Shown in pieces: positions 6,972 through 41,167 of a stretch of 64,000 nucleotides of DNA. Where the stretch lies: positions 1 to 64,000 of the IMG/VR virus record IMGVR_UViG_3300038393_003162. One strand, 5' to 3'. The DNA comes from a virus. Taxonomy: Duplodnaviria > Heunggongvirae > Uroviricota > Caudoviricetes. Position numbers and translations under genes: made by a program. The notes beneath the pieces are model-generated. The model was not told where the DNA came from. It did not search any database and saw only the letters and a list, made by a program, of their open reading frames with translations. The first letter of the stretch is position 1, and every line of letters starts with the position of its first letter.

Positions 6972-7154
6972 CTTCGTTACCCCTTGTGTACTTCCTGGCG
7001 AACCCCGCCAGGGTAAGGCTAAGGGTACATCCGGCTAATACAAGTCCTAATCCAAGCATAAACAACAATAAGTATGTTTATTATTCAACGTCTATACGTG
7101 TAAAATGTGCCTGGATACACTCGCATAAGTATCCAGGCACATTTGACAAAATTG

Positions 7155-7583
7155 CTAGGCGTATGCTCGCTTGGCAAGGAAAACGTCAATGCTCTGTTGC
7201 AGGGCGTGGGCGAAGTCATCGGCGGGCATAGGGGTATGGTCCAGCCCGCTAAGATTAAACTCGCACATACCTTGACCGTAGAAATTCAACGCACGTGTCA
7301 CGTCTGGCAACCGGGTCCAGGCGTCGATACGCTTGAAGACGGCTTTGTCTTCCACGCCCATGAACATCATTGCCATGAAGCCGACATTGTTGACGTTGAC
7401 GGTGGACATCATGGCAGCCCACGCCGCAAATTTCATGGGGTCTTTGGTGGTCGAGCAGGTCTTGAGCAGGCGTCCCTTGCGCTTGCCCTTGGAGCAGATT
7501 GCCGAGTGGATCAGGTCGATATCCCTCGGCTCCAGCATGCCCAAGACCAAGCCAAGATCGATCAGCGAATCAAGCCAAAGCAT
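7155..7583 (-). CDS. hypothetical protein
   Basis: motif at 7631, AAGGGG RBS, stop abuts a palindrome. Confidence 0.7.
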   Translation of the reverse strand: MLWLDSLIDLGLVLGMLEPRDIDLIHSAICSKGKRKGRLLKTCSTTKDPMKFAAWAAMMSTVNVNNVGFMAMMFMGVEDKAVFKRIDAWTRLPDVTRALNFYGQGMCEFNLSGLDHTPMPADDFAHALQQSIDVFLAKRAYA

Positions 7584-7706
7584 CACGTTACCCCTTGAGT
7601 TGTCTGCCTGGCACCGTGCCAGGGTAAACCTGAGGGCGTGTCCGGTTATTGAATGACGCAACACCTAAGAACGAGAGCTTGTATGCTCTCGTTCTTAGGC
7701 TCAGAA

Positions 7707-7922
7707 TCAACGAGACACGACGGTCGCCGTTCTGATCGGCTTCTTAAGCCCTCGCTTGAACTTGCCGGTGTACCCTTCGGCGATCAACCACCGCCTTAGA
7801 AGCTTCCGGGCTCCCCTGCGGCAGGGTGTCTCTATCGAGAAACCCTCACACAAATCGACACCAACAGACGACTCGACACTGCCGTTACTGAGGCGGCATT
7901 GTTTGCGATAGAAGGTAAGCAC
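7707..7922 (-). CDS. hypothetical protein
   Basis: motif at 7973; hairpin after the stop. Confidence 0.55.
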   Translation of the reverse strand: MLTFYRKQCRLSNGSVESSVGVDLCEGFSIETPCRRGARKLLRRWLIAEGYTGKFKRGLKKPIRTATVVSR

Positions 7923-8104
7923 GATTCGGTCCTCGGGGTTCGCGGTGTCGAAGTCACTCGCTTCGACACCACAGAGGGTGAATCCGTGTAATATATCCCA
8001 GCCAATAATAAACAGCTACTTGAGTGTTCAAATTTAATTAATTATAGGCGTAAAACGTGCCTGGATATACACTCATAAGTATCCAGGCACGTTTTACAAA
8101 ATTG

Positions 8105-8422
8105 CTAGGCAATCCACTCGCCCTTAACGCCGTGGAATTCCCGTTTGCCCTTGGCTTCAGGGGCGTGGATTTCCGGCCAGTGAACGGTGATCAGTCCCCG
8201 CTGGTTGGGTACGTCGCCAGCGGGGATGACGAGGCAATCCCACGCCGGAGTGTTGTCCGGATGGCTCTTGCACCACTTGCAGTCACACCCGCCGTCGATT
8301 GGTCGCTGAAGCTCCGGGCTCAGCGTGATGTAAACCCTGCCGTCTTCAAGACGCAGGGCATGCATGCTGAGCGAGGACGGCGACAGGCTCTTCGCGATGG
8401 ACTCAGGAGCAACCACGTTCAT
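8105..8422 (-). CDS. hypothetical protein (CxCxxC)
   Basis: motif at 8468, GGAG RBS. Confidence 0.65.
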   Translation of the reverse strand: MNVVAPESIAKSLSPSSLSMHALRLEDGRVYITLSPELQRPIDGGCDCKWCKSHPDNTPAWDCLVIPAGDVPNQRGLITVHWPEIHAPEAKGKREFHGVKGEWIA

Positions 8423-8546
8423 CTCGATCTCTCCGGGGTTATGCCTGGCACCTCGCCAGGACATCGCCAAGGGTACGTCCGGCTATTGGAGGTTTGGGCA
8501 AAGCAAGAGACAGGGGACTGATCCCCTGTCTCTCTGTCCGTCCCGA

Positions 8547-8783
8547 TCAGATGACGAGGCTAACTGGCTCACCGACTTGGGTGCAGACTAGGTCGCCGTC
8601 CTGATTGGGTTCAAAGACGGCAGGCGGGCATTGATAGTGGTCGCGTGCGTAAAGCTCGACCTTGCTCGGGGAATCTTCGTTGCCGTAGATGAGAGCAGCT
8701 TTGTAGTCGGTCGCATTGGGGATCTTGTGGACGTCCTGCAGCCACTTCAGGTCTTCGGTCGTGTCGAGATAAAATACCGACAT
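8547..8783 (-). CDS. hypothetical protein
   Basis: motif at 8822, AGGAG RBS. Confidence 0.7.
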   Translation of the reverse strand: MSVFYLDTTEDLKWLQDVHKIPNATDYKAALIYGNEDSPSKVELYARDHYQCPPAVFEPNQDGDLVCTQVGEPVSLVI

Positions 8784-8845
8784 TTCGATCACTCCTGAGA
8801 GGTTGTTGAACGGAACGTTGTAGAGGGTGTTTCCGGTCTTAGTCT

Positions 8846-9031
8846 TCACCTCCCGATTCCTAGCACGCCGAAAATGAGGAACATTCCTCCACCGATGACG
8901 GCGATCGGCAGCGCCACACTCGCGATTGCAGCGATGATGGCAAGCCCGCAGGTGAGGATGACGAAGACAGGGACACAGAACACTGCCCCGACAATCAACG
9001 CCACCATGATATTCGCAATGAGATCGATCAT
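8846..9031 (-). CDS. small membrane protein (2 TM)
   Basis: 61-aa hydrophobic ORF, AAGGA RBS. Confidence 0.65.
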   Translation of the reverse strand: MIDLIANIMVALIVGAVFCVPVFVILTCGLAIIAAIASVALPIAVIGGGMFLIFGVLGIGR

Positions 9032-9058
9032 TTGATATTCCTTTCTTTCCTGATCTCA

Positions 9059-9087
9059 ATGATACGATTGGTCACGGCAGATGTCAA
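9059..9087 (-). promoter_or_regulatory. sigma70-type promoter
   Basis: TTGACA-17 bp-TATCAT upstream of 8846..9031. Confidence 0.65.
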
Positions 9088-9242
9088 GTGCCGGGGACTT
9101 CGGTATGTCCTCCCTCAAGGGTGTATCCGGTCAATAGCCTCAGCAGGATGACTGATTGCGATTGAGCTTATCTATTCTATAAATGCGTATATGCCTATGT
9201 GTCCACACTCAGTTAGGTGGACACATAGGCATATAGACAAAA

Positions 9243-9425
9243 TTACGAGGCGCGGTCGAAGCGGTCACGCTCTCTCACGTCCCGCAGGGACTCGTGCCGC
9301 CGCAGGCTATGTCGCTCGTAACGGCGGGACTCGCGGTCCTTGCGGTTGGTCGCTTCGGTGACGATCTGGAAGACGTTGTTCTCGGGGTAGTTGAAGACGA
9401 CGTTTTTGCGGAACGTGCGAGCCAT
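9243..9425 (-). CDS. small basic hypothetical protein
   Basis: motif at 9469, GGAG RBS. Confidence 0.65.
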   Translation of the reverse strand: MARTFRKNVVFNYPENNVFQIVTEATNRKDRESRRYERHSLRRHESLRDVRERDRFDRAS

Positions 9426-9596
9426 TGTCCGATTCTCCAGGGAAGGATTTGTCGTCAACTGACGCACTTAAGGGGACATCCGGTTTTAATTCGTCTTAGA
9501 GAACAATAACTCCTGAAGATGTGTTGTTGGTTATAAGCGTTTATGCGTCTACGTATCCATGTTCTCCAGTGAACACGTAGACGCATAAACAAAATA

Positions 9597-9773
9597 CTAG
9601 GCGGGGATGAGTCGGAGTTGATCGAGAGACCGGAGCCGGGCGCGAACTTCGCTCATCTTGACTGGTTTGGGCTGCGGGAAGCGGTCACGCTCCAGCCGGT
9701 CACGCTGGTGCTTGCCGACTTTCTTTCGCTCGGGGACTTGGATCATCGCGCCTTTGGCAATCGTGCGGCTCAT
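9597..9773 (-). CDS. small basic hypothetical protein (58 aa, below the ORF-track cutoff)
   Basis: translated by hand: MSRTIAKGAMIQVPERKKV...LIPA*; AAGGAG RBS; motif at 9813. Confidence 0.6.
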   Translation of the reverse strand: MSRTIAKGAMIQVPERKKVGKHQRDRLERDRFPQPKPVKMSEVRARLRSLDQLRLIPA

Positions 9774-9827
9774 TGGTCTCGCTCCTTAGGGGTGAAGTTG
9801 GGTTTGTGATTCTGAGGGCGTATCCTG

Positions 9828-10016
9828 TTATTGGTAAGCAGGCTCGGGCGAGTAAATCAGTATGAAGACATCGGAGTCATCAGGGGGCATTGCGACGACC
9901 TCATCTATAGACACATTGACATACTTGTAAATGCTGACACAAACCATCGTAACGACAATGGCAACGACAATGCTTTGAACGGCTGCCATGAAAACCGCCT
10001 GGAGGTAATGCCACAC
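9828..10016 (-). CDS. small membrane protein
   Basis: N-terminal TM; stop TAA lies inside the next motif. Confidence 0.6.
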   Translation of the reverse strand: MWHYLQAVFMAAVQSIVVAIVVTMVCVSIYKYVNVSIDEVVAMPPDDSDVFILIYSPEPAYQ

Positions 10017-10132
10017 TGTAATACTCCCTGAAGGTTGTTGATCGATGCTTCGTTGAGGGTATGTCCGGCTTTTAATGAGTTGAGCGAGGCGAAGAGGGGG
10101 ATTTCTCCCCCTCGTTTGCTTTGTTGTTTATA

Positions 10133-10480
10133 TCAGTGGAGCTTGCCGGAGCTCCCCCAGGTGTGGGGCAGGGTCTCGCGATGTCCGTTGCGGTTGATGA
10201 TGCGGGAACGTCGCACGAACCCGGCATAGGGGTTGCCGCAAAGCTCGCAGACGTGTCCGGTCGCGGGGTGTCGGTTCTGTTCGCTCTTGCCGTAGCAGTA
10301 ACGCGCCCGTTCGGCACCACGGCACTTGCGGCACTTGTCGGCAGACGTGTCGAAAGTATAGGTCCTGAAGAAAACGACGCCATTACTGAGCGTCACTTTG
10401 AGGATGACTTTCTCTTTCCAGCTTGCCATCGGATTTTTCTCGTCATAAGCACCTGCTGCCGTGCGATAGATCATGATCAC
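10133..10480 (-). CDS. hypothetical protein with two CxxC motifs
   Basis: CRKC and CELC; motif at 10511. Confidence 0.6.
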   Translation of the reverse strand: MIMIYRTAAGAYDEKNPMASWKEKVILKVTLSNGVVFFRTYTFDTSADKCRKCRGAERARYCYGKSEQNRHPATGHVCELCGNPYAGFVRRSRIINRNGHRETLPHTWGSSGKLH

Positions 10481-11283
10481 TCCAGGAATGGGTTGCGGTT
10501 AATCCGTGGCTAAGGGCGTGTCCGGTTATAGCTAGTATAGATCAGAAAGTAGGGCTGAGGAATTCCCCAGCCCTTTTTGATTGATTGTTTAGAATTATCT
10601 TCGTCGGGGCGAAAGCGGCTTGAGCAACTTGCGAGGTGTCGGGAGCGGTTCGCTTTCCTTTTGGACTGCCTTGAACACGAGGTAAGGCGCGGGGACGACA
10701 ACGACGTTGCTGATTTGGTCGCGAGTCCGAATCGGCATGAAATCAGCGTTCGGACGGTTGAAGATAACGGAGAACACTCTGTCACTCCTTCGGGGTGGGT
10801 TGCGGTTGATCCACCTCGAAGGGTGCGTCCGGCTATTGATCTCCTTTTCGTATTTTTAAGTGAACAGATGTAAAGATTATGATTCTTACATGTGATCATA
10901 AGCGGGCAGTAGTTTATGTATGGATATGCCTGCCCGCTTATGATTAGACAAAATTAACCGTGCGGTCCGGGTCCATCGGAGCAGTTGAGGCAAGGACCGT
11001 CACAGCTGGGGCAACGGCTACCGCCGGTGCAGCACTGGTCGAGCGGTTCGTTACACGTCTCACAGTTGCCGAGTTCTTCGTCTTCGTCGGCGTTACGTCC
11101 GTCAACCAACTTTTCTGTTTCCTTCATCTCAATCTGCTTTGCCATCCTAACACCTCTGTTTGTGTGATCTTTCAATCTTTGTTCTTGACTTCGACATTTC
11201 TAAGGGCGTGTCCGGTTATTGGTCATATGAAACGGACGAAGGGAAGGGGGTTGTTGTCCCCTTCCCTTGCCGTGGTCGTCGGA

Positions 11284-11529
11284 CTAGGCGACGAGCTTCA
11301 GGACGGTCGCCTTGCGGCTGAACTTCTTCATGGAGTGGATGGACGCCGCGCCCTGCGTGGGGAAGCCGGGCTTGAGCAAGTAGATCGAGGTCCCGACCTT
11401 GGCGACGAGGTTCCAGTTGCCCTTGCTGCCGACGAGGTGCAGCTTGCCGTTGGGCAAGAGGTTCTGACGGAGCTTGTTGATCAGGTTTTTGCGGAACTCG
11501 CGGCGGGTGGTCTTGATGGTGCTGCTCAT
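11284..11529 (-). CDS. small basic hypothetical protein
   Basis: motif at 11586; hairpin downstream. Confidence 0.7.
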   Translation of the reverse strand: MSSTIKTTRREFRKNLINKLRQNLLPNGKLHLVGSKGNWNLVAKVGTSIYLLKPGFPTQGAASIHSMKKFSRKATVLKLVA

Positions 11530-11719
11530 CGTTTCGCTTCTTTCCGGGGTTAGGTTGTTGTCGGAGCGACTTGCTTCGACACCTCCAAGGGCGTGTCCGG
11601 TTTTTACCTCTTAAGTGACAAGTAAAAATATGTATTATAGTTTAATCATTCACTTGTGAGTATGTTAATCATGTCTGGATACTTGTGTGTTTGTATCCAG
11701 ACATGATTAACAAAATTGG

Positions 11720-12016
11720 CTAGGACTTAACCGTTCCGACGAAGACGGCGAGTCGCTGGTCGCTCCCGTCACCGATCCAGCCCGCCGAACGCCAGTCGAT
11801 GATACACTCGACCTTGTCGGGGTCAGTCAAGATCCGGTGATCGGCGATTGGTTCGCTGAAGTGGATGAAAGCATACGGCTTGAACGGATCGGTCTTGTTC
11901 TCGCGATGCCAAATCACGAAATCGCGGTCGCCGTTCGTGGCTTTCCCCAGCCCTGTATTCAGAACGTAATCCGGAATGAGGTCAGAATTAGTCTGATTGA
12001 CTTGCCAAAGCGCCAT
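11720..12016 (-). CDS. hypothetical protein
   Basis: motif at 12055, AGGA RBS. Confidence 0.65.
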   Translation of the reverse strand: MALWQVNQTNSDLIPDYVLNTGLGKATNGDRDFVIWHRENKTDPFKPYAFIHFSEPIADHRILTDPDKVECIIDWRSAGWIGDGSDQRLAVFVGTVKS

Positions 12017-12122
12017 GGTTTTATCCTGGAGGGGTGAGTTGTGATCTCCGCTTCTAAGGGCATGTCCGGTTATTGAGGGCAAACGAGACGAGGCAGGGAT
12101 TGCTCCCTGCCTCGTGGTCGTC

Positions 12123-12461
12123 TCAGAGGTCGAACTTGATACCGTCGTGCTTGGCGCGGAGAAGGACGGCAGCCGCGAAGCCGGTCCGGCGAGACAGCAT
12201 CCAGTTGACGATGCCGTATGCTCGGATGACGCCATAGTCCTGTTCGGCGTCGTTGTAGGCGTTGACGACGGTTGCGGCTGCCTCTTGGTCGGCGAGGCTA
12301 ACCGACAACTTGGGACGTATAGCCTGGAGATTCTCCGATTCTCGCAGAATCATTGTACGGACCTTTTCGGTGTCGTCGCAGTCCACTTGCGGGAGAAACT
12401 TGTTGATTTGAGCCGCAGTGATCGGGGATTTGAAGTCGTCGCGAGTGAGTTTCTTGTCCAT
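12123..12461 (-). CDS. hypothetical protein
   Basis: motif at 12509, AAGGA RBS. Confidence 0.65.
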   Translation of the reverse strand: MDKKLTRDDFKSPITAAQINKFLPQVDCDDTEKVRTMILRESENLQAIRPKLSVSLADQEAAATVVNAYNDAEQDYGVIRAYGIVNWMLSRRTGFAAAVLLRAKHDGIKFDL

Positions 12462-12644
12462 GTCTTTTCCTTTGAGTTGGTCTCGGCGACTTGCCAAGCT
12501 TGTGCCTCTAAGGGTACGTCCGGTTATTATCTAACTCAGACAGAAAAACATGTGTTTATGAATTTAGTTGTTCATTTATAACAAGGACGTGACGCTTATG
12601 TATGATAGTATGTGCGTCACGCCCCTCAAGACAAAATAGCCGGG

Positions 12645-12887
12645 TTATACGGGGTTGCCTTCTCCGACGGTGGAGATAACGATTGGTCCGATCCACTTGG
12701 CGGGGTTAACCTTTGCCCACGCTTCACCACACCCCGCGTTGACCTCTCTGATCTTTTCCTGGACTTCGGGATAGCCGTTGGAGATGGTCGACATGTCGAT
12801 CCATCGCCGACCGTCGGTCTCGCGGATTGCCGCCCAATAGCCGTTTTGGACGACGGTCTCTTTCAGTTCCCAATCGTTTTCGGACAT
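12645..12887 (-). CDS. hypothetical protein
   Basis: motif at 12929, GAGGA RBS. Confidence 0.65.
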   Translation of the reverse strand: MSENDWELKETVVQNGYWAAIRETDGRRWIDMSTISNGYPEVQEKIREVNAGCGEAWAKVNPAKWIGPIVISTVGEGNPV

Positions 12888-13000
12888 CTTGATTCCTCTG
12901 AAGTGGTGAGAAGTGTTGCCAACGATATTGAGGGCGTATCCGGCTATTGGTCGTGAGGCGTGAGAAGTCGCCTAGGAGTGTTTCCTAGGCGACTCGTGAG

Positions 13001-13540
13001 TCATCGCACGTAGTTAGGCGGATTGGACGGTTCAACGGCATACTTCTCGATGACTTCCTTCGTCGGACGATAGAGGCTGCAGCCCCGTCCGACCTTGGAC
13101 TTGGGCTTGGCTCCCTGCTCTGCTTTGGCTTTCATGTTCCAAAGCTTTCGATAGGCGAGCGGGGTCGCAGCCTCAATGGCATTGAAGACGAGAGGTTGGG
13201 CGAAGCCTGCCAGACGCATCTCTTCAGCGATTTCTCCGAGCCGATTTAGAGCGTCCTGGACCTGTTGTTCTGTCATCTCGATTGCCCGATAGATCATCTC
13301 AGGCAAGACCGGCGTGTCGAATGAATCAAGATCATCAAACCAATTGCTGAGTTTCTCGCCATGCTTGGCAGCCATCATCTCGGCGACGATACAATCCGCC
13401 ATCTCAAGACGGAATTGCTGCTCCGTCTTGAATTCCTTGTGTGTCCCTTCACTCTCCACATCAGCGAACCGATTTTCATCAGCACGCTGCCCGAAGTAGT
13501 TTCCCCGTTCTTCCAGTCCGTACAGCCCGGCTTCTTTCAT
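13001..13540 (-). CDS. hypothetical protein
   Basis: motif at 13576, AGGGG RBS. Confidence 0.7.
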   Translation of the reverse strand: MKEAGLYGLEERGNYFGQRADENRFADVESEGTHKEFKTEQQFRLEMADCIVAEMMAAKHGEKLSNWFDDLDSFDTPVLPEMIYRAIEMTEQQVQDALNRLGEIAEEMRLAGFAQPLVFNAIEAATPLAYRKLWNMKAKAEQGAKPKSKVGRGCSLYRPTKEVIEKYAVEPSNPPNYVR

Positions 13541-13705
13541 CTGATTGCCCCTGAAGAGTGACGATTGAACGCCTCTAAGGGTACGTCCGGTTATTGCCTC
13601 GTTTAGAAGAAATACATTGAGTAATGTTGATATTGTCGTTAGAGTATACATCAATCATGCCTGAATACTTATGTGCTAGTATTCAGGCATGATTGACAAA
13701 ATAAA

Positions 13706-13942
13706 TCAGTGGCTTTCCCATATCTCCTTAGCCTTTTCGGGCGGTAGGGGAGGGTCGTATTGGCGAGGGATTTCGAAGCCGAGTTTTGCGAACTGCTCGG
13801 TATCGACGAGGTCGCCCTTCTTCTTTTTATTGAGACTGTTCGCAGCGGCTTGCCACATATGCCCCTGCTCGGACATCATGATATGTCCGAAGAGACCGAA
13901 AGAGTTGGTGTTGCTGGAGACCATGAGAACTTTCACGATCAT
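13706..13942 (-). CDS. hypothetical protein
   Basis: motif at 13981. Confidence 0.6.
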   Translation of the reverse strand: MIVKVLMVSSNTNSFGLFGHIMMSEQGHMWQAAANSLNKKKKGDLVDTEQFAKLGFEIPRQYDPPLPPEKAKEIWESH

Positions 13943-14013
13943 GGCATTGTCCTAGGAGTGAGGTACGGTTGATCCTCGTCTAAGGGCGTGTCCGGTTTTA
14001 ATCGTGTTAGGAG

Positions 14014-14041
14014 AAAAAGGGCGGGAGCAATCCCGCCCTTT
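14014..14041 (-). terminator. intrinsic terminator (representative of many in the array)
   Basis: AGGGCGGGA-TTGC-TCCCGCCCT followed by TTTT on the minus strand, directly upstream of motif 13981. Confidence 0.75.
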
Positions 14042-14044
14042 CGA

Positions 14045-14416
14045 TCAATCCCTTTTTAACGGTGTAATCAGATTCTTCAGCTTGAAGACGACGAGGTAAG
14101 GGTCGTCGTGCTTGCCCATATCTTCAATGGGCATGATCTTTTTGAGATTGTAACCTCGTCCGATTCCCCCGGCTCCGTGGTGCCACTGGTCAATGTAAAT
14201 GCCCGACCCAAACGTGTAATCCACGATGATGTACTCATAACCCTGTTTTTCCATCATGGTAATCGCCTCGTCCAATGAGGCGACTTCGGGATAGCCGGGG
14301 GACGCGCCGTGGTGCGGGAAGTAGATCAAATGATCATGAGTATTTTTGCCGTCGTAGGGACGTGCCGTGATGCCGCCCTTGTTAACCTCAATCACGACCT
14401 TGAGCGATTCAGCCAT
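14045..14416 (-). CDS. hypothetical protein
   Basis: motif at 14454, AGGA RBS. Confidence 0.7.
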   Translation of the reverse strand: MAESLKVVIEVNKGGITARPYDGKNTHDHLIYFPHHGASPGYPEVASLDEAITMMEKQGYEYIIVDYTFGSGIYIDQWHHGAGGIGRGYNLKKIMPIEDMGKHDDPYLVVFKLKNLITPLKRD

Positions 14417-14593
14417 GTTCTTGTCCTGAAAGAGTGTGGATTCATCCAGCGTCTAAGGGGACATCCGGCTATTGATCGTGTTCAGAGGAAAAACATTTAG
14501 TGATGCTTATATTGTCGTTAGAGTATACGTCAATCATGCCCGAATACTAACACACAAGTATTCGGGCATGATTGACAAAATTGCGAGCATTAA

Positions 14594-14794
14594 TCACCAC
14601 CTCATGGCAGCATTCCATGCTTTAGGCAATGTGCCACCGCTGGTGAGCCATTCATCAAAATTCAAGCATGCTTCCGCCAAAGCGAGCGAATCTGCCTGTT
14701 TCCATGCTGGACTGGTTGGCGTGCCCTTGCCTTCATTTTGGATACGCCGAGCAGACAAAGTGCGAATCATCTGCAGCAATGCGTTAGGGTCCAT
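14594..14794 (-). CDS. hypothetical phage protein (MDPNA...WLxxGGxLPxAW)
   Basis: degenerate motif at 14836, GAGGA RBS. Confidence 0.65.
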   Translation of the reverse strand: MDPNALLQMIRTLSARRIQNEGKGTPTSPAWKQADSLALAEACLNFDEWLTSGGTLPKAWNAAMRW

Positions 14795-15353
14795 GATTTA
14801 ATCCTCAAGTGTTAAGTAAACAACTTTCCTGTTGCTGAGGATGTATCCTAGTTTAATCCCCGAAACAAGAAAAGGCGGGATTGCTCCCGCCTGATTTTTC
14901 AATCTCCGTTATTCCCACGAAGGGCGTCGGTTAGTGTACGAGTAAGGGCGTCGGTAACGCCTTTCTGCAGTAGCTCGTGAGCGTGAGATTCTAAATAGTC
15001 CCAATATCCCTTGTCGCCGTATCCCTGCTGTTGTGCTTGTCGTGCTGCCAGGCTCTTGTATTCACTCTCGGCAGGCATCTCCATTCCCCTTTCGTTTTGC
15101 TTCCTCTTTGAGCATGAATTGTCTGCACCGCTTAGGGTACGTCCGACTTTAGCACGTCCTAGACCAAATGTAAAGTACAAACTCCGTCGGCTATGCGTGA
15201 ATCAATCCAATAATACGTATGTCTATCGTGCCTGGATACTCGTGATATATCCAGGCACGATAGACAAAATTGCGAGCATATCAACGCCGCTAACCTAACA
15301 GTCCTGAATACCTAATCGTATCCAGGACTGTTAGGTATTGCAAAAATATCCGA

Positions 15354-15755
15354 TCAGTAGTCGTCGCCGTTGTGCTGCTCGGCTTTGGTGTGTCGCTGAT
15401 CGAGCAAGACGGTTGCCGTGTCGAGCGTAGCAAGGTGAGGATTGATCAGCCGATTGAAATCGGTCTGATACCGGGGGTCATAGCTCGCATAGCGAGACGC
15501 TGAACCGTCAGCCGTGGGGACGAGACCGGACGGGGCTGCGGGGTGATCATGCCCCTTGAGGACGAGCAGGAAGGGCTTGGGGTGTCCACCACCCGTGATG
15601 GTGGTCTTACGCTTGCCTTTCTGGTAGAACTCGACGACCTTGTAGCCGGGGCAGGCTTTGTTGTCGGCGATCCGCTCCAGCTTGCCGTAATGCGTGGTGA
15701 TTCCGAACCCACCGGAGATGTACACCGTGACTTTCTCTTTGTCCTTGCTCGCCAT
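15354..15755 (-). CDS. hypothetical protein
   Basis: motif at 15798. Confidence 0.7.
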   Translation of the reverse strand: MASKDKEKVTVYISGGFGITTHYGKLERIADNKACPGYKVVEFYQKGKRKTTITGGGHPKPFLLVLKGHDHPAAPSGLVPTADGSASRYASYDPRYQTDFNRLINPHLATLDTATVLLDQRHTKAEQHNGDDY

Positions 15756-15861
15756 TGTTTCGTTGTCCTAGAGAGGTGAGGTTGATTGATCCTGTTCTCA
15801 GGGCGTGTCCGGTTATTAGTCGCGTTAAAGAAAGAAGGGGGATTTCTCCCCCTTGGTTAAC

Positions 15862-16104
15862 TCAGTCGTAGGTAGCGGTCTTGGGGTAGAGGTTGATGAC
15901 TCTGGCAAAGGCTTCACGTTCCTCCACGCAGACGACCGCATCCTTTTCGCTGGAACCGAAGGGGACACCGACCGATACGACCATGTTAGGATTGGTGGGA
16001 TGGTCGTAAACCGTGACGTCTCGCTGACGCCAGTTGTTTTTGAGTCGCCCGATCACGGGCTTACCCTTGACGGTTTCCAACGTGATGTTTTCGGAGTTTG
16101 CCAT
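15862..16104 (-). CDS. hypothetical protein
   Basis: motif at 16145, AAGGA RBS. Confidence 0.7.
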   Translation of the reverse strand: MANSENITLETVKGKPVIGRLKNNWRQRDVTVYDHPTNPNMVVSVGVPFGSSEKDAVVCVEEREAFARVINLYPKTATYD

Positions 16105-16217
16105 TGTTATGGTCCTTGGGAGGTGAGGTTGATTGATTCGTTACTCAGGGCGTGTCCGGTTATAACTCAGTGCAAGAACAGAAGGGGGAATTTCTTCCCC
16201 CTTGGTCGACTGGTGGT

Positions 16218-16427
16218 TTACTTGGTCTGCTTCGGCGAGGAGAGCTTCATGGCGCTCTTGACGGTGATTTCCCGTCCGGTCTTGAGGTTGGTCGCTCGCC
16301 AGTGAGTCCGTGCCTTGCTATACGTGGTCCCGGAATGCTCGACCTTTTCCAGGATTTTCACCTGAATCTTGCCGCTCGTGTGGTTCATGGTGTACTGCTG
16401 CCCTACCACCACGTCTTTCTTCGTCAT
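16218..16427 (-). CDS. small basic hypothetical protein
   Basis: motif at 16473; W.ATNLKTGREITVKSA. Confidence 0.7.
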   Translation of the reverse strand: MTKKDVVVGQQYTMNHTSGKIQVKILEKVEHSGTTYSKARTHWRATNLKTGREITVKSAMKLSSPKQTK

Positions 16428-16611
16428 GTCTTTGTCCTTGCTAGGTGCCAGAGAAGATGGTTTCAGCGAGACTAAGGGTGCGTCCGTGTTTAACACCAAC
16501 CAAAGAATAAAAACATGAAAGCATTTTAATTATTAAATTTGCTTTTTACTTGTATATGTCAATCATGCCTAGGTGCTTATAATTACACCTAGGCATGATT
16601 GACAAAACAAT

Positions 16612-17103
16612 TCAGAGCTTGCCGTAGATCGGCACATGGGCGATGTAATGGGTCAGAGTCGTGAATGCCGCATGATCCTCCTCAGCCTCTTTCTTGAGCT
16701 TGCCGACGATGCCGAGCAGATTGTCATGGTCTTCTTTGCCGAGCACGATGCCGCCGCGACTGGCGAAGCCGTAGAGGGCGTCAGAATCGTGCCAGGCGTA
16801 GGCGATCCAGATGGCTTGAACGAGTTGGTCGGACTCGTGCGCCGTGGTGATGACGTAGCACTCGCCTTCACGATCGCCGGTCAGGGTCCGGTCCACCCAA
16901 TAGCCACCGAACAACATATGTGGACGTGATCTCCAAGTCCAATCCTTGAAGTATCGCTTTGTGCGGTTGGCGACATCCTCCAGGGTGAACCCGTAGATGA
17001 CCGCCTGCAACCTGTGATCCGGCGTCTCTTTCTTCACGTCCTCCATCGTCATGCGACGAAGGACGAAATGCTTAGACACGGCTTTCGGAACATAGCTCGA
17101 CAT
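16612..17103 (-). CDS. hypothetical protein
   Basis: motif at 17145; stop abuts a palindrome. Confidence 0.65.
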   Translation of the reverse strand: MSSYVPKAVSKHFVLRRMTMEDVKKETPDHRLQAVIYGFTLEDVANRTKRYFKDWTWRSRPHMLFGGYWVDRTLTGDREGECYVITTAHESDQLVQAIWIAYAWHDSDALYGFASRGGIVLGKEDHDNLLGIVGKLKKEAEEDHAAFTTLTHYIAHVPIYGKL

Positions 17104-17399
17104 GTTTCCACTCTCTCAGGGGCAGAAGGTTGATCGTCCGATGCCGAGGGGGTTTCCGGTTATTAGCTCATATCCTTGCGAATGCTGTTTTTCTTCAATC
17201 GCTTGCCGCCGTGTACCGTCCTGGCAACCCAATGCTGTTGTCCGCCCACTACAAACCAAATGATCGTATCATGAGTCTTGCGAATCTCAATGGATTCTCT
17301 CGGAATGCCAAGGTCTTTCGCGATGTCGTCGAGCAAGTCCATTCTATCACCTTGCTTGTTAATGTGGGGCGAGTTGGCTTTCCTCGCCCCTAGGGGTTG

Positions 17400-17708
17400 T
17401 CAGAGCCGCTCGTGTTTGTACGCCTTGAGGTCGTCGAAGAGTCGAATGGCGATGAGATCGACGGCATCACCGATCGCGCGGGTCTTCATCACGCCGGTCT
17501 TATCGTTCCAAGTGGAGTCGGTGAGAGTTGAAACGTAAGTTGTCACGTCCTTAATGCGGTTGACCTCGGTTGCCACGAAGTAGCGAGCGCCTTTGATCAC
17601 GCCGTCGCGATTCTTGTAGGCGAGCGAGAAGATGGTCGTCCCCTTGGGGGCGTACTTCAGGAAGATTGTCTTGTGACGCTCGAACTGTTCTTTGGTTGCG
17701 GTTGGCAT
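17400..17708 (-). CDS. hypothetical protein
   Basis: motif at 17751. Confidence 0.7.
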   Translation of the reverse strand: MPTATKEQFERHKTIFLKYAPKGTTIFSLAYKNRDGVIKGARYFVATEVNRIKDVTTYVSTLTDSTWNDKTGVMKTRAIGDAVDLIAIRLFDDLKAYKHERL

Positions 17709-17765
17709 TGATTCAGGTTCTCTTCGGGATGAGGTTGGTTGATCCGTTGCTGAGGGCGTGTCCGG

Positions 17766-18320
17766 TTATTGTCCGGAAGAATCAAAGTCAAGAATCCCTT
17801 GCTCGTTTTCTCTGTATGTCAGCAGACCGTTTGAAACTCTGGCAGGTTGTGTATACTTATGATGTTTAATCACATCAATCTCCATGATATGGCATACATC
17901 CCAAGACCTGCACTTCAGGAAGTCCGATATCATCGACCGATGACACTTCCACCATACAGCTTCGGAACACATATAGCAAACACTGCTGTCTGTCGCCATC
18001 GTCTCCAACTGTGTGATACCGTTCTCGAAACCGCCTGTCTCCATGTAATCAGCATAACCCCGAAACGATGGATGCCGCCACCGCGTGTTAGGCGAATTCT
18101 TATTCACCTTACGACGACCTCCAAGATCGGTAATATGAACATATTCAATCCCAGATGCGGGGATCGTATTGGACAAATTCTCCTTGTTGAAATGAGGATA
18201 TTTTCTTGATCCCGGAAAAGAACGAACATCCACCAGGATTTGAATATCCTGAGAATGCAACATGTCAATAAGATCGTTCAACGAACGAGTTGAGTGACCA
18301 ATCGTCCAAATCTGAGGCAT
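17766..18320 (-). CDS. DUF488 family protein
   Basis: IWTIGHSTRS, LVDVRSFPGSR, LGGRR, F.GYADYM, MCSEAVWWKCHR are typical DUF488 motifs. Confidence 0.9.
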   Translation of the reverse strand: MPQIWTIGHSTRSLNDLIDMLHSQDIQILVDVRSFPGSRKYPHFNKENLSNTIPASGIEYVHITDLGGRRKVNKNSPNTRWRHPSFRGYADYMETGGFENGITQLETMATDSSVCYMCSEAVWWKCHRSMISDFLKCRSWDVCHIMEIDVIKHHKYTQPARVSNGLLTYRENEQGILDFDSSGQ

Positions 18321-18349
18321 GATTCCGTATCCTAGGGCGTGTCTGGTTG

Positions 18350-18700: not shown

Positions 18701-18875
18701 GCTTAACTCTCCTGATGTCTAGGGGATGTCCGCACCTCTAAGGGTACATCCGTCTTTAACACCAACCAACGAATAAAAACATTAGAATATTCAAGTATTT
18801 GAATTTGATTTTTACTGTACGTGTCTATCATGCCTAGATGCTTATAACTACACCTAGGCATGATAGACAAAATAG

Positions 18876-19433: not shown

Positions 19434-19489
19434 TTCCACGGCTAATCTTCTCCAAGAGTTGGTTGATCCGTTGCCTAGGATGTGTCCGG

Positions 19490-19822: not shown

Positions 19823-19874
19823 CTCTCATTCCCCTTTGGGGTGTGACTTGTCCCGTCGTCTAGGGTATGTCCGG

Positions 19875-31946: not shown

Positions 31947-32702
31947 TCAGAGAGCGTCGAAGTCCTGCCCGCCGTTGTGATCGGGCGGAATGTCACGATG
32001 ACTCGGATCATAAGACTCGTCTTCAGGCGAGATCGGATCGGGATACCTCGATCCCGGTCCCCCTTCGACATCCTTATCAGGAAAGTAGAACTGGTCATAC
32101 GTCATCGAAACCATCTTCTCCACCCACGCTGCCGCGTTTCGCTTCAAGGCAAGCATGATCATGTCATCATGATTGCCGGGAACCGCATCGCCTTTCAGGT
32201 CGAGACGATAAGCCAAATCCCGAAGCGACCGTGTGTTCAGCCTCGCCTTGTTCGCGAGATTCGTGACCAATTCCGCCGTGATTGGTCCATTGAACTTGAT
32301 CTGGAGCCACCGTCCCCACTTGGGATAGCCTCCCTCGATCCAAGCAAACCGCTCCGCTGGGTTGTTGGGTCCGACCCATGTGTGATCATGGATCTCGTCG
32401 GGAGGCGGCTGAATGTTGTTCTCGTGTCCTTCCTTGAGAAACGGATCGTCTCCGCTCTCGTCGCTGTCCAAGTGCTTCTCCGCACAGTCCTCGCACGCGA
32501 CCATGTCGGACATCACATCTTCTTTGACGAAGAAGTTGGGAACCCAATACTGTTCCTCAGCTTCCGACTGCTCTACCTGCTTGTTACAGAAACAGCAGGT
32601 CACGATTGGGTCATTGTCCCACTCATCCAGAATGTTGGCTAGCGCACTCAATTCCCCTGTTACACGATTGAGTGCCGTCATCAGTCGCTCACGCAATTTC
32701 AT
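31947..32702 (-). CDS. hypothetical protein, paralog of 32816..33553
   Basis: CCFC..CEDC; IQPP.DEI.D.TWVGPN.PAER.AWIEG.YPKWG. Confidence 0.75.
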   Translation of the reverse strand: MKLRERLMTALNRVTGELSALANILDEWDNDPIVTCCFCNKQVEQSEAEEQYWVPNFFVKEDVMSDMVACEDCAEKHLDSDESGDDPFLKEGHENNIQPPPDEIHDHTWVGPNNPAERFAWIEGGYPKWGRWLQIKFNGPITAELVTNLANKARLNTRSLRDLAYRLDLKGDAVPGNHDDMIMLALKRNAAAWVEKMVSMTYDQFYFPDKDVEGGPGSRYPDPISPEDESYDPSHRDIPPDHNGGQDFDAL

Positions 32703-32815
32703 GGCTCTTTGGTCTCACTTAGAGGTAAGGTTGTTCCACCACTCAGGGCGTATCCGGTTTTTAGCAAGTAAAAGAAACAGAGGGGGAATATATTCCCCCT
32801 CGTTCCTGTGGTCAC

Positions 32816-33553
32816 TTACTTGCCGACACCGTAGTATTGGTCATAGGTCAGCGACAGAACCGAGTCGAGGTGATCCGACGGGTTCTGTTTCAAGGCACGA
32901 ATGATCATGTCCTCGAAATCGCCCGGAACGTTCTCACCCTTCAAACCGAGACGGTAAGCCAGGTCTTTAAGAGAGACGACGTTCTTTTTCGCCTTCTCCA
33001 TCAGCCCCTTGACCAATTCCTCCGTAATTGGACCGCTGAACTTGATCCGGAGCCACTGTCCCCACTTGGGATAGTTCCCCTCGATCCAGGCAAGCCGCTC
33101 AGCCGGATCGTTAGGTCCAACCCACGTCGAATCGTAGATCTCATCCCGAGGCGGCTGAATCTCGTCCTCGTGTCCTGCCTTCAGGAAAAATCCCGCAGCC
33201 CCGAGATACTGGATGTGTTCACTGGCACAACTCCCGCATGACGCCAAGCCCGCCCTGGTCTCGGGAGCGACGTAGAAATCCGAAAGCCATTCTTCCTGAT
33301 GTGACTCAACCAATGTCGCCGTGCGACAGCAGAAACAGCACGACACGAGCGGCTGCTCTTCCGGAATCCCCTTCTCGATCACTTTGGTCAAGTTGCTGAT
33401 GGCGGGGTCGAAATGTCCCAGCAAGACAACCCCCGACGCGATCACCGTCAAAGGCGACGGCTTGACGTGTTCCGACTCCGACAACCGAGCGATCATTGCC
33501 CTCTTCGCCCGATCCGTCGCCTCTCTGATTTGTTGGTTTCTTGTCTTTTCCAC
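32816..33553 (-). CDS. hypothetical protein, paralog of 31947..32702
   Basis: same conserved block; start approximate. Confidence 0.7.
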   Translation of the reverse strand: MEKTRNQQIREATDRAKRAMIARLSESEHVKPSPLTVIASGVVLLGHFDPAISNLTKVIEKGIPEEQPLVSCCFCCRTATLVESHQEEWLSDFYVAPETRAGLASCGSCASEHIQYLGAAGFFLKAGHEDEIQPPRDEIYDSTWVGPNDPAERLAWIEGNYPKWGQWLRIKFSGPITEELVKGLMEKAKKNVVSLKDLAYRLGLKGENVPGDFEDMIIRALKQNPSDHLDSVLSLTYDQYYGVGK

Positions 33554-34324: not shown

Positions 34325-35545
34325 TTACTTGCCGTTGCGAGCCGGGATCGAGGTCTGGTTCGCTCGCACCAACTTGTGAAGCGACTCGAAGTCGGCTTCA
34401 TCGTTGAGCAGTCCGTTCTCCTTCAGGAAGACGAACATGGTTTTCTGCGAGTCCCTCACAAGCTTGTACAAGATACGTTCAAGCTCTTTTTCGCCCGTCT
34501 TCTCGCCCGTGAGGAACTTCTTCGTCAGAGTCGTGCAGAACTCCCGAACCGCAACGAATTCGCCAGGACTGATCATGTTCTCAGCCCACTTGCGAACCAT
34601 CTTGGTCGACACCTGCATCCGGGGGTTGGTGCCGTTCCCCTCGCCCTCTTTCTTACCCTTGCCTTTGCCTTTGCCTTTGCCGCCGCCCTTGCCGGAACCC
34701 GAAGAGCCGTTGGTCTCCCCCTCGTCTCCCTCGTCTCCCGAATCCCCGTTATCTCCCTCGTCGCCATTCTCGTCGAACGGGGAATTGTCGTCTTCGTTGT
34801 CGTCGTCGGTGTCCATGTCCTCGGTCGCATCGGCGAGACGGAACTTGATCAGTTCCAGCGTCACCTTCTTGCCCTCACGGATCATGCCGTAGAACTCCTC
34901 CTGGAGTGACTCCGACAATTCCGTGATCTTAGCACAGACACGCCACGAAAGCTTATTGGGGGCGTTCTTGGCAGGAACCCGAGCGAGTCGCTCCTGAATG
35001 TCGCTCGGGCATTCCAGAAGCTTCGCGTACTGGCTCACCACCGATTGGTCGTAGCCGATGATCTCTGTGGCGATCTGCTTGGACGTCATCCCGCACACGT
35101 CCCGAGCATACTTGATGAGCCCCGCGTAGTCCATCGCGGTCATCGGCTCGCGGTCGAGGTTCTCACCCTTGTTGTACTTCAGCCGGTCAATGTTGTTCCC
35201 TTTCGGGACCAAATTAACCTTTAACTTGAAGTCGGGCTCATGGACGTGGATAACCTTGCCGTCCTCATCCGTATAATCGAACCCGTTGACGATCAGCATC
35301 CCCGCCGCGTGACGATTGAAACCCGCAACCACATCTAGGCTTTTGTCGGGAAGCCGCGTAACGTCGATCGGATCGCGGTTGCCCTCGATCGACATCCGAT
35401 ATGCGAGCTTCGGAACCCACTGATCCTCCGGGTCCACACCCGCCGAAAACCACCGTGAGTGGTTGTTCTTCGGATCAGCCGAAATGTGAAGCGGGGACAC
35501 CATCGTGATCGACTTCACATCGATGACATTCGGGTCTTTCGCCAT
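34325..35545 (-). CDS. ParB/Spo0J-like protein (ParB N-domain plus HTH) with acidic and G/K-rich linker
   Basis: DVVAGFNRHAA, ENLDREPMTAMD, MTSKQIATEIIGYDQSVVSQYAKLL. Confidence 0.75.
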   Translation of the reverse strand: MAKDPNVIDVKSITMVSPLHISADPKNNHSRWFSAGVDPEDQWVPKLAYRMSIEGNRDPIDVTRLPDKSLDVVAGFNRHAAGMLIVNGFDYTDEDGKVIHVHEPDFKLKVNLVPKGNNIDRLKYNKGENLDREPMTAMDYAGLIKYARDVCGMTSKQIATEIIGYDQSVVSQYAKLLECPSDIQERLARVPAKNAPNKLSWRVCAKITELSESLQEEFYGMIREGKKVTLELIKFRLADATEDMDTDDDNEDDNSPFDENGDEGDNGDSGDEGDEGETNGSSGSGKGGGKGKGKGKGKKEGEGNGTNPRMQVSTKMVRKWAENMISPGEFVAVREFCTTLTKKFLTGEKTGEKELERILYKLVRDSQKTMFVFLKENGLLNDEADFESLHKLVRANQTSIPARNGK

Positions 35546-38723: not shown

Positions 38724-38789
38724 TCTGTTAACTCCATCCCTTTGAGCGTGGGAGATACACTTTCCACGCTCAAAGGGTGCGTCCTGTCA

Positions 38790-40202
38790 TTAACCGTTGA
38801 ACGACTCTTCCATCAGCATGCCCGAAACACGAAAGCTGAAGTCCTGTAGGTCGCGTGTACAGTCCCCCGACTTCGTGATCGCATGGCTGAACTCTTCCAG
38901 CACGACCTTGATGAACAGGTAGCCGGTCGACTCCAACGTGTCACGGGACAGCCCCACCGTATCCCGCCGATGATCGTAGTAGCCGCCTACAACCCGTCCA
39001 GCGTCCATCACATCGGCATAGCCTTCCAAGACAGGCATCGCACGCCCCCGAGTCAAGCCCAGCCGCTCCAGACACTTCCACACCCGCTGGCACTTCTCCA
39101 GGTGCTTGGCGGTCAAGTCCACCTTCACCCGACCCAATGCCTCGAAATGATCCAAGACATCGATCGCCGTCTTCACGCCCATAGACGCCAGAGTCTCGTG
39201 AAGCTCCGAAGAGACGACAACAGCCGTATGCCCCTTCATCTCCACCGCATCCACGAAACGGCTCTCCTCGCAGCACACCGCCTGCTCGCCGAATACCTCC
39301 TTCCATGCTTGGAGCCACCGCTGCGACACCTCAACCCCATCCGTATCGTATGAGCGAATCTTCATATAATACGAATCAAGTTCCATCTCGTAGGCGTTCA
39401 GGTCCCCTCCCGGTCTCAGGTTCCGGAGATACTCGACCAAAATCGAAACCGGAGCGTTCCGGATCGCACGACCAATCACCTCGCGAGAATCGCTCTCGCT
39501 GATGATCCGTGCCTCGTTCAGATGGATCTCGTTCAGGTTGTAGTCGAACAGCGACCGACTCCCGAACTCCCCAACCAAAACACCCTTGCGATAGACTCGC
39601 GCCGGTGTCCCGTCGATCCGCTTCGGCATGATCGGCTCGGACGGCTCCCAATCGCGATTGAACATGAGGAAATGCTTGGCGAGCTCGTTGTAGTACGCTT
39701 GGACGGCTGACGTTCCCTCAATGTAGATCCGCGTGACATCCTTCTTCGCCCGAATCTCTTCCTCTTCCACCCACGTAACCTTGGCATTCTTCGTGTCGAT
39801 CCCCTGAATCACGCAACCGTCGATCGCGTTCGACACGAACTCGCGAACCGCCATCCCGACATCGGTCCAGTCGATCGCACCGAACCCCATGTCAAAACCC
39901 AACGGCTTCGACTTCCGCCCAGATCCCGAAATCTGCTTCATGACCACTTCGTTGACGGAAACCCGACGCCCCGCCGCATCCTTCGTTGCTCGTGAGTCCG
40001 TCTCGAACTCGAACCCGTCATTCCCAAGGTAAACCCGGAACTCGACGCCCTTCCTCAAAAGAAGAGCAATCGAGAACTTGAACCCACTCCCGAACTGTCC
40101 AATCAGGCTCTCGTTGCCACGTGCCGCCGACGCTCCAACAATCGTCAACAGTTCCGTGCCAACGACGCCGGGATTCTCGATGAGAAGGTACGTCTTGCTC
40201 AT
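38790..40202 (-). CDS. GHKL (HATPase_c-like) ATPase with permuted motif order and HExxH-like C-terminus
   Basis: IENPG, IGQFGSGFK, then AVREFVSNAID; C-terminal VVLEEFSHA. Confidence 0.7.
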   Translation of the reverse strand: MSKTYLLIENPGVVGTELLTIVGASAARGNESLIGQFGSGFKFSIALLLRKGVEFRVYLGNDGFEFETDSRATKDAAGRRVSVNEVVMKQISGSGRKSKPLGFDMGFGAIDWTDVGMAVREFVSNAIDGCVIQGIDTKNAKVTWVEEEEIRAKKDVTRIYIEGTSAVQAYYNELAKHFLMFNRDWEPSEPIMPKRIDGTPARVYRKGVLVGEFGSRSLFDYNLNEIHLNEARIISESDSREVIGRAIRNAPVSILVEYLRNLRPGGDLNAYEMELDSYYMKIRSYDTDGVEVSQRWLQAWKEVFGEQAVCCEESRFVDAVEMKGHTAVVVSSELHETLASMGVKTAIDVLDHFEALGRVKVDLTAKHLEKCQRVWKCLERLGLTRGRAMPVLEGYADVMDAGRVVGGYYDHRRDTVGLSRDTLESTGYLFIKVVLEEFSHAITKSGDCTRDLQDFSFRVSGMLMEESFNG

Positions 40203-40265
40203 GGGGATCTCGCTTTCCTGGGGTGAGAGAATGTCTATCCGTCGCTACTCAGGGCGAATCCGGTT

Positions 40266-40523
40266 TTAATCACCAAACCACCACATCGCATGATATCGGC
40301 AATAAACCCGGTTCTGAAGACTATCGATCAATCGGTCGTATCCATGGCGTGTGCCATCCGTCTGCAGTGACATGTCCGTATACAAAATATCTCGACTTAA
40401 TGGCATCTCGCAGAATCGACAACATACTTCCCTCTTTAAGAGGATGTCGTCGATCCTTTGAAGCCCATAGCCGTTGACGATCTCTCGCCACTTGGTCTTG
40501 TCTCCTCCCCTGTTCTTCACCAT
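40266..40523 (-). CDS. hypothetical protein (CRFC..CRYH)
   Basis: GGAGG upstream; motif at 40560. Confidence 0.6.
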   Translation of the reverse strand: MVKNRGGDKTKWREIVNGYGLQRIDDILLKREVCCRFCEMPLSRDILYTDMSLQTDGTRHGYDRLIDSLQNRVYCRYHAMWWFGD

Positions 40524-40684
40524 CGCTCATCCGCCCTCCATCTAATGCCTACCTCGCCTCAAAGGGTGAATCCGGTTTTTGCCCGGCATTTTAAAAAATA
40601 AAAATGCGGTTGCGGTCCATTGTGCCACAACGACACACGGACCGCAACCGCATAATAACCGCCTACAGGATTGACAAAATATCT

Positions 40685-40960
40685 TCAGTACGTCCCCATA
40701 ATCACAGCAACAGCCGCCTTGTTCTGCCTCGGGTGGTCGTTCGGATCGATGAAGTACATGTCGAGCAGGTAAATCACCCCGTCTGACAAGAGGTTATAAC
40801 CCCTTTTCTTGAACGCCAGCCTGGTCTCATAGCACCACGCCCTTATACTGTCCGGCGTCACCTTCCCCGTCAGCTTGACCGGAGGCAGCCCGTCCGGTAT
40901 CCTAATGTCCCTAAGCTTCCTCTCTTGCTGCGGCTCCTTCTGCGACCGTTCCTTTGCCAT
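40685..40960 (-). CDS. hypothetical protein
   Basis: AGGAG RBS; motif at 41003. Confidence 0.65.
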   Translation of the reverse strand: MAKERSQKEPQQERKLRDIRIPDGLPPVKLTGKVTPDSIRAWCYETRLAFKKRGYNLLSDGVIYLLDMYFIDPNDHPRQNKAAVAVIMGTY

Positions 40961-41167
40961 GGGTCTCGCTCCTGATCGTGGAAAATTTCGACGCATTTCG
41001 GCAAAGGGTACATCCGGTTTTTGCCTGCGTCAAGACCAATCTGAAATAAACGATTGGTCTCATGTTCAACCAACTAACTAATTACACGATCAAATAACCA
41101 ACTCTTTATACACATGTCCACACACATACACAAAATATAATGTGATCGCAGGCATACACAAAATAAT

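Follow-up and report, generated by a model that had tools for sequence, protein, structure and literature searches.

A row of 58 small gene units headed by a probable phage-private promoter in a fragment of a T4-like huge phage

Why should a phage place the same short sequence ahead of several dozen small genes in succession, and what would read that sequence? The question is raised by the first 64,000 bp (positions 1–64,000, here called the window) of record IMGVR_UViG_3300038393_003162, a 253,022-bp fragment of a T4-like huge phage, uncultured, from soil, with a CheckV completeness of 43%. On the minus strand of the window, at 7014..41023, a weight matrix delimits a row of 58 co-oriented units, each headed by YWAWARCCGGAYRYRCCCT. 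The present study suggests, at a probability of roughly 0.7, that this motif is a promoter private to the phage, where host RNA polymerase with a phage-made specificity factor would start a transcript for nearly every small gene about 8 nucleotides (nt) past the CCCT of the motif, and that the units so headed are exchangeable.

The conserved block is followed by a looser YAG and then by a conserved pyrimidine-to-purine step (Y|R) 7–8 nt past its final T, while in the aligned copies no column is conserved 19–40 nt upstream of the block's last T. A preliminary description of the window had reported about 58 co-oriented minus-strand copies of a contiguous 17-bp motif at 7.0–41.0 kb. The number, the region and the contiguity were borne out, but the block is 19 bp long, with the Y|R step downstream: the pattern first given matches the window 48 times at two or fewer mismatches (shuffles: mean 0.20, maximum 2), and a weight matrix iterated over the whole record recovers 58 minus-strand copies between 7037 and 41020. 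Naming each copy by a position p, so that the block spans p-15..p+3 and the predicted start site is p-23, the copies are at 7037, 7648, 7990, 8485, 8839, 9133, 9486, 9830, 10071, 10528, 10835, 11218, 11603, 12072, 12526, 12946, 13593, 13998, 14471, 14853, 15149, 15815, 16162, 16490, 17162, 17768, 18349, 18756, 19492, 19877, 20982, 21622, 22563, 22937, 23608, 23823, 24317, 25168, 25500, 26591, 27280, 27691, 27918, 29161, 30773, 31533, 31939, 32760, 33610, 34114, 35633, 36429, 36802, 37607, 38789, 40266, 40578 and 41020. Two further statements, that all copies were co-oriented and that none lay outside the row, need correction. A lone plus-strand copy occupies 29207..29225 (p 29210), back to back with the minus-strand copy at 29161 and separated from it by a sigma70-type TTTACA-17-TATCAT, and six strong copies lie beyond the window, at 89.7, 97.0, 99.1, 103.1, 106.3 and 107.4 kb of the record. 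Density is 1.7 per kb in the row against 0.03 per kb in the remaining record, and the motif core falls inside a called gene at 1 of 64 sites, in agreement with the expectation that the motif would not be equally frequent genome-wide or within genes. Exactly one gene is headed by 48 of the 58 copies, two genes by 4, three by 1 and no called gene by 5; all 59 called genes of the row are on the minus strand. The exact motif had no match in viral contigs; its 13 metagenome matches all stood alone and were taken as chance or coding.

The motif does have homologues in related phages. These were reached through a 470-amino-acid protein of the row (38790..40202, minus strand), whose gene serves as a marker for finding relatives, has motif-headed orthologues in the genomes here called G001, G002, G003 and G006, and is also present on a contig of 585,064 bp. 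Alignment of its homologues led to 80 viral loci, most of which lack an array of this kind within 10 kb of the marker. All 38 GTDB loci with a homologue of the protein are Planctomycetota, and this phylum is therefore the likely host. Colinear relatives are G001 (340 kb), G003 (533 kb) and LR756511.1 (595 kb), in which 64, 49 and 66 of the 362 called proteins of the record find matches, respectively; G003 encodes a T4-like Gp23, Gp20, sheath, terminase and gp55-like sigma. A homologous signal is found at the same syntenic spot in five relatives. There are 62 copies of TAGGTCYAGTGTACCCTAG at the matching spot in G001, 61 similar copies in G002, 35 in the fetched part of contig C4, 14 copies of TTTAG-N4-TTGTACCCTA in G003 and 8 of TTTAG-N4-TTGTACCTACAGG in G006. 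In LR756511.1, 55 plus-strand copies of WWAAGCTGTAC head small units in the first 20 kb, which converge with a minus-strand block; the array takes up the first bases of this record, which may or may not be a physical genome end, and no terminal repeat was found there when looked for. Spacing is common to this phage (WWWAR-N5-YRYRCCCT) and G003 (TTTAG-N5-TGTACCCT), and eight copies of this phage contain YGTACCCT, three reading TGTACCCT and five CGTACCCT. We would read the motif of this phage as the element of its relatives, with its TGTAC core, to which an invariant CCGGA has been added. As separate observations, at 214–233 kb of G003 an inverted half-site GGTACAA stands about 23–24 nt upstream of most copies of the family signal, and a few G001 and C4 sites carry a full inverted copy of it. 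Four low-GC phages sharing one row gene (L012-L015) have one-promoter-per-gene rows of their own, with TTGTAAACTTTTTT and a TAnnTTTG box that we take to be a Bacteroidota host promoter.

Where would transcription begin? Positions are counted from the last T of CCCT, over 64 sites. A Y|R step at +7/+8 is present at 49 of the 64 (background 0.225, p 6e-20), and the same step occurs at 58/60 sites in G001, 56/61 in G002, 13/14 in G003, 35/35 in C4 and 5/8 in G006; in LR756511.1 the register peaks at the equivalent base (67% of 54 terminal sites). An ATG opening a reading frame stands exactly at +8 in two cases in G001, two in G002 and three in C4, and at the same or the next base in 7/54 plus 10/48 sites of LR756511.1. 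Shine-Dalgarno boxes begin exactly at +8 in 8 of 45 G001 leaders. Given the step, the leaderless ATGs and the Shine-Dalgarno starts at +8, the promoter element would extend from about -26 to -8 relative to the start, with the YRYRC core (TGTAC in the family) at -15 to -11 and no -35 box. Bacterial multi-subunit polymerases use such a geometry, in which a -10-like element stops 7 nt short of a Y|R start and the spacer is G-rich. Leaders in this phage would be 23–129 nt long (median 35; 56 sites, one with a box at +1 dropped). A leader sequence common to many units had also been described; exact CGGATCAACC is found in 4 leaders and GGATCAACC in 6, far from most of the 58, and where present it begins at the predicted start site. 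Nearly every small gene of the row would have its own transcript, starting about 8 nt after CCCT.

As to what reads the motif, the host RNA polymerase core would be redirected to it by a phage specificity factor, a factor arrived at by elimination only, because no phage polymerase was found, sampled hosts show no enrichment of the motif and sigma70 is unlikely. This record, G001 and G003 yielded no family of the RpoB or T7 type (with a T7 control that stayed silent); G003, rated 100% complete, is without a counterpart of G001 14–80 kb, and its result is therefore not taken as proof of absence. In LR756511.1, PF00623 was absent with positive controls, no polymerase family appeared among 43 long proteins scanned, and there was no DFDGD/NADxDGD or T7 motif-B pattern. 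In 301 Planctomycetota genomes, from which the true host is perhaps missing, the motif gave 3 matches against 4 for reversed controls, and its family form 3 against several dozen in controls. The base equivalent to A-11 of a sigma70 promoter is A in only 30 of 64 sites, making host sigma70 unlikely, and a sigma54 promoter was rejected as there is no GG at -24/-25. The start-site signature and the lack of enrichment in those genomes support the earlier proposal of a dedicated non-sigma70 promoter for each gene.

Candidates for the factor are at hand, since the search of the remaining genome that the preliminary description had proposed yielded sigma-like genes of 373 and 168 amino acids in this record, the latter at 231.4–231.9 kb, although no T7-like polymerase was found in it, at 43% completeness and with a silent control. 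Several sigmas are encoded across the phage family. The 373-amino-acid protein is a divergent member of the sigma70 family, encoded at 97.9–99.0 kb of the record (phrog_351, E 2e-7); a sigma of 333–373 amino acids is present in all four large records (this one, G001, G003 and LR756511.1). Its profile aligns to SigA over regions 1.2–4.2 (E 1e-17), its predicted model matches sigmaA chains, and a profile search gathered 699 relatives where direct homologue search returned none. The motif stands ahead of its gene both here and in LR756511.1, which is what autoregulation of a sigma would predict. This protein appears to be the leading candidate for the reader, at odds that we would set somewhat short of even; a FliA-like sigma of 165–180 amino acids or a non-sigma factor could serve instead.

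An alternative explanation could be that the element is read by a host alternative sigma, or by host sigma70 aided by a phage activator that, like T4 MotA, would bind at -26 to -16. We consider this unlikely, though it fares best among the alternatives. It would need no phage sigma when infection begins, and the -10 region of G001, G002, G003 and G006, being TACCCT or close to it, conforms to TAnnnT followed by a G-rich discriminator. In this phage, however, the low frequency of A at -11 is accompanied by a preceding C in 51/64 sites, a sequence that sigma70 would not accept. LR756511.1 does not conserve the final T, and the 301 genomes show no enrichment, subject to the same reservation about the true host.

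Several observations weigh against a phage-private promoter read by host polymerase with a phage factor. The start at p-23 is predicted from sequence alone, and the leaderless cases are confined to relatives, with no ATG at +8 in this phage. The Y|R step peaks a second time, on +2 in this phage (56%) and on +1 in G001 and G002 (95–97%), and the 5′ arm of a hairpin starts between -4 and +2 at 12 of 64 sites. An extracytoplasmic function (ECF)-like promoter, GAACY-N16-STCT, precedes the candidate sigma gene in G001 and G003, and therefore the sigma need not read the motif class there. By the CheckV estimate about 57% of the phage genome is unseen and a polymerase gene could sit there; several long proteins of LR756511.1 and G003 match no family, and the PF00940 search in LR756511.1, with a silent control, returned only 11 bits, on a Pol A gene. 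An atlas look-up of one unassigned 947-amino-acid G003 protein gave no usable match. Finally, unit turnover was not seen in the row of this phage itself, in four DNA runs over 6.5–24.5 kb that gave short, low-depth contigs of the same strain; three weak joints from the four runs (side 20–55 nt) were not used.

Some of these points would suit the T7/SP6 analogy originally drawn. In that case the unseen part of the genome would encode an RNA polymerase of the single-subunit (or virion) type, and transcripts would begin immediately past CCCT. A contiguous block of about 19 bp with an AT-rich 5′ end and no -35 would be in keeping with it, as would a purine at +3 in 63 of 64 sites, the step at +2 and the hairpins near +1. 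The register kept across phages is nevertheless +8, not +1 or +2, and it is at +8 that leaderless ATGs and Shine-Dalgarno starts of relatives are found. The segment before the start consists of CCCT and a G-rich stretch, with no AT-rich segment for melting. LR756511.1 has an array and no recognisable polymerase, G001 and G003 likewise yielded none, and the family is T4-like with several sigmas. The analogy therefore does not hold up well, and we regard such a polymerase as improbable. The hairpins near +1 would fit either a start just after CCCT or a structure acting only in read-through RNA. Of the 12, 8 abut a stop codon, 2 end T-rich and several pair CCCT with the Shine-Dalgarno box, for which reasons they would form in read-through RNA only; they could stop or silence such RNA, which is compatible with a start at +8 and no proof of it.

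It is also conceivable that the motif is no promoter, being instead a repressor or roadblock site of the stoperator kind or a signal for RNA processing. The motif is asymmetric and intergenic and its copies share one orientation, in several leaders CCCT can base-pair with a downstream Shine-Dalgarno box, and CACGCCCT(T)AGAGG is common to the motif and the second CRISPR repeat of this phage. Against this, a start signature at fixed offset together with leaderless ATGs across seven related records is not expected of an operator, and about 13 copies directly follow a terminator-like hairpin with no other promoter ahead of the gene. The letters held in common with the CRISPR repeat are missing from the motifs of relatives, and kinship between the two was rejected as probably chance. 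We judge a site of this kind very improbable.

The reading of the motif as a private promoter of exchangeable units leads to a comparison of G001 with C4, which are 79–97% identical over aligned blocks. Blocks typically stop about 20 nt past one signal and restart about 16 nt ahead of another, and entire units are absent or replaced. A signal is no more than 35 nt away from 15 of the 22 internal block ends (background 0.18, p 3e-7); not every end is independent of the others. Unit exchange is also suggested in this phage by duplicated junctions and by a pair of paralogues; the pair, two adjacent minus-strand units at 31947..33553 with 74.6% identity over 299 nt, is consistent with duplication of a unit. 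Since all units open with one common short sequence, homologous exchange between motif copies would remove, add or replace complete promoter-gene units and leave expression intact. A scan of 247 of the roughly 362 called proteins turned up no integrase family, and general homologous recombination is therefore the likely route. The suggestion that the row is a platform for capturing and shuffling genes is thus upheld by gain, loss and swap at the signal in G001 versus C4, though not in this phage itself. That the motif is the site-specific recombination site of an integron-like array, as breakpoints clustered at the signal in relatives and frequent overlap with the previous stop codon might suggest, is the most improbable explanation of all, since the motif is asymmetric with no palindromic attC form, no integrase family appeared in the scan, block ends are spread between -20 and +33 relative to the anchor instead of falling at one bond, and single copies outside the row head sigma, helicase and ATPase genes.

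The genes so headed are small, with a median of 113 amino acids against 184 elsewhere, and only 7 of 57 row proteins scanned match a PHROG at E<=0.001; most are without assigned function. All those named here are on the minus strand. They include a DUF488-family gene in the unit of motif 18349 (17766..18320; PF04343, E 3e-32), an ArdA-like anti-restriction gene headed by motif 25500 (25168..25443; PF07275, E 5e-7; phrog_2059), a C5 cytosine DNA methyltransferase gene headed by motif 30773 (29707..30711) and a ParB-like gene headed by motif 35633 (34325..35545; phrog_1033, E 1e-5). Copies outside the row head the sigma gene, an AAA ATPase gene followed by an ArdC-like gene, and a UvrD-like helicase gene. 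Judging from gene content, which is also the basis for the timing, row genes would be early or middle accessory and anti-defence genes.

Of the 58 copies, 21 directly adjoin the stop codon upstream, 21 come after a WTTTTGT element, in most cases with a long hairpin, and 16 have some other gap, about 13 of the latter with a short GC hairpin (read by eye). The description that the motif often follows an intrinsic terminator is thus true of a minority. Terminator-like sites are not in excess over shuffles (23 versus 18.0+/-4.0 and 20 versus 15.8+/-4.0). The WTTTTGT element (7093..25606, minus strand) comes directly 3′ of a stop codon and consists of a hairpin with a stem of about 15–25 bp and an AT-rich stretch, after which comes the motif. 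Clear copies start at 7152, 8102, 9243, 9595, 10954, 11716, 12637, 13702, 14581, 15270, 18873, 21727 and 25606, and looser ones reach as far as 41164. WTTTTGT occurs 24 times on the minus strand of the row and 3 times on the plus strand; the stems are near-perfect with G-U pairs at the base and the loops vary. There are 13 long hairpins in the first 20 kb, for which the arrays of relatives show no enrichment, and at 7–16 kb the elements alternate with short GC hairpins (short terminators).

Canonical sigma70-type promoters form a class separate from the motif, as had been stated, with TTGACA-17-TATCAT at 9059..9087 (minus strand) and further sites at 15174, 24362, 29195 and 29690. A second, bipartite private promoter was sought in the record after masking the motif and was not found. 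GAACY-N16-STCT, a separate ECF-like class in G001 (35 matches) and G003 (42), is at chance level in LR756511.1 and in this record (7 matches, chance estimate about 6). A further class, TTTACA-N15-GGTA, has 58 matches in G001, 39 in G003, 3 in this record and 7 in LR756511.1, and tracks an intact RpoD-like sigma of 315–322 amino acids, which is frameshifted in the LR756511.1 record and was not found in this one. About 700 nt with low coding potential, at 28400-29140 (minus strand), lie downstream of motif 29161 and a sigma70-type promoter and are possibly a non-coding RNA; Rfam had no match in the window, this segment included. A tRNA-shaped gene at 29400-29545 (minus strand) has anticodon UAU, a D-loop enlarged by an inserted hairpin of about 70 nt and a fold z of -3.8; ARAGORN reported no tRNA in the window, and both it and Rfam missed this gene.

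Directly upstream of the row are a gene for a Cas12b-like type V effector of 924 amino acids (42311-46101, minus strand; PADLOC Cas12b E 2e-34; Pfam C2c1 RuvC E 5e-15) and, after it, a CRISPR array of nine good repeats and one degenerate (42.6–43.2 kb, spacers 34–43 nt). The second CRISPR array (57020-57890, minus strand) has a different 36-bp repeat and no recognised cas gene nearby; solitary or partial copies of its repeat are at 28455-28490 of the window and at 99.9, 107.4 and 143.6 kb of the record. The one at 107.4 kb begins about 10 nt past the predicted start of motif copy 107428 and is presumably comparable to the solitary repeats of RNA anti-CRISPRs. Strand skew is strong at 42000-56200 (GC skew reaching 0.38 and AT skew falling to -0.38), covering the Cas12 gene and a run of genes for 160–370 amino acids without confident families, many starting MP. 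Genes with 69-bp MORN-like repeats (DUF6745) are found at 1966-5005 (plus strand) and 59321-61924 (minus strand), several with a twin-arginine-like N-terminus.

Among known systems, phage sigma cascades with private promoters, such as SPO1 gp28 and gp33/34 and T4 gp55, resemble the present proposal in redirecting the host core polymerase to a consensus absent from the host. The T4 gp55 late promoter is likewise contiguous, a -10-only element of 8 bp heading structural genes, whereas SPO1 middle promoters are bipartite; the element here is at least 19 bp long and heads accessory genes, and relatives carry a separate gp55-like sigma. Promoters of T7, SP6 and T3 are contiguous with an AT-rich 5′ end, a phage-specific middle and a family-wide 3′ part, and the motif shares these features and a similar block length; it differs in its start signature 8 nt downstream, the GC-rich segment before it, and the lack of any such polymerase found in the whole-length LR756511.1. 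It does not fit ECF promoters, with a GAAC-type -35 and a GTC-type -10 about 16–17 bp apart.

The promoter/stem-loop (PeSL) cassettes of T4-type phages, described for RB49/phi1, T4/PST and KVP40/nt-1, have promoters that follow the sigma70 consensus of E. coli and carry an AT-rich UP region (PMC2839356, PMC4122927). The likeness is considerable, namely a T4-like phage, a hyperplastic region of small ORFans, a repeated promoter for each unit, often near a hairpin, and insertions, deletions and replacements bounded by the repeat (here, by the homologous signal in G001 versus C4). The motif differs in lacking a -35 and in its non-sigma70 -10, only a minority of copies have a terminator before them, and with 58 units in 34 kb the row is much more crowded; since PeSL promoters match the sigma70 consensus, the row is not of that type. 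In archaeal viruses, early anti-defence genes near the termini of SIRV2 share a regulatory sequence (PMC11065993) and halovirus HF2 has promoter-bearing intergenic repeats (PMC8707807). Unrelated small genes each headed by a virus-specific sequence are the point in common, and ArdA-like, ArdC-like and methyltransferase genes are among those headed here; the difference is an archaeal host TATA/B recognition element (BRE) core there and a bacterial, apparently non-host promoter here. The promoter and sigma passages of a huge-phage survey contain no such motif (PMC7162821). A literature search, with supplements and most subscription papers outside its scope, found no paper on the motif or its family.

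What is new is the row of compact, non-sigma70, probably private promoters, PeSL cassettes and phage sigma cascades being already known. A wider proposal may be made tentatively, and we hold it to be rather doubtful as a whole: that T4-like huge phages of Planctomycetota use a fast-evolving full-length sigma, of which there would be 699 relatives, to read a compact block from -26 to -8 without a -35, and that this block doubles as the crossover point of a gene-exchange array of 55–60 units, in which case the motif alone would mark the anti-defence set of the phage and an orthogonal sigma-promoter pair would be to hand. We know of no sigma70-family protein with such a promoter geometry. If a sigma does read the block without a -35, the geometry would be new and could furnish an orthogonal expression part. 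A testable start site and a named candidate reader are now fixed, and by the logic of SIRV2 the motif serves as a direct index of candidate anti-defence genes for a host phylum that has gone unstudied. It can be seen how a phage of about 585 kb could operate about 60 genes of unknown function one by one, as exchangeable units, from a signal apparently unused by hosts.

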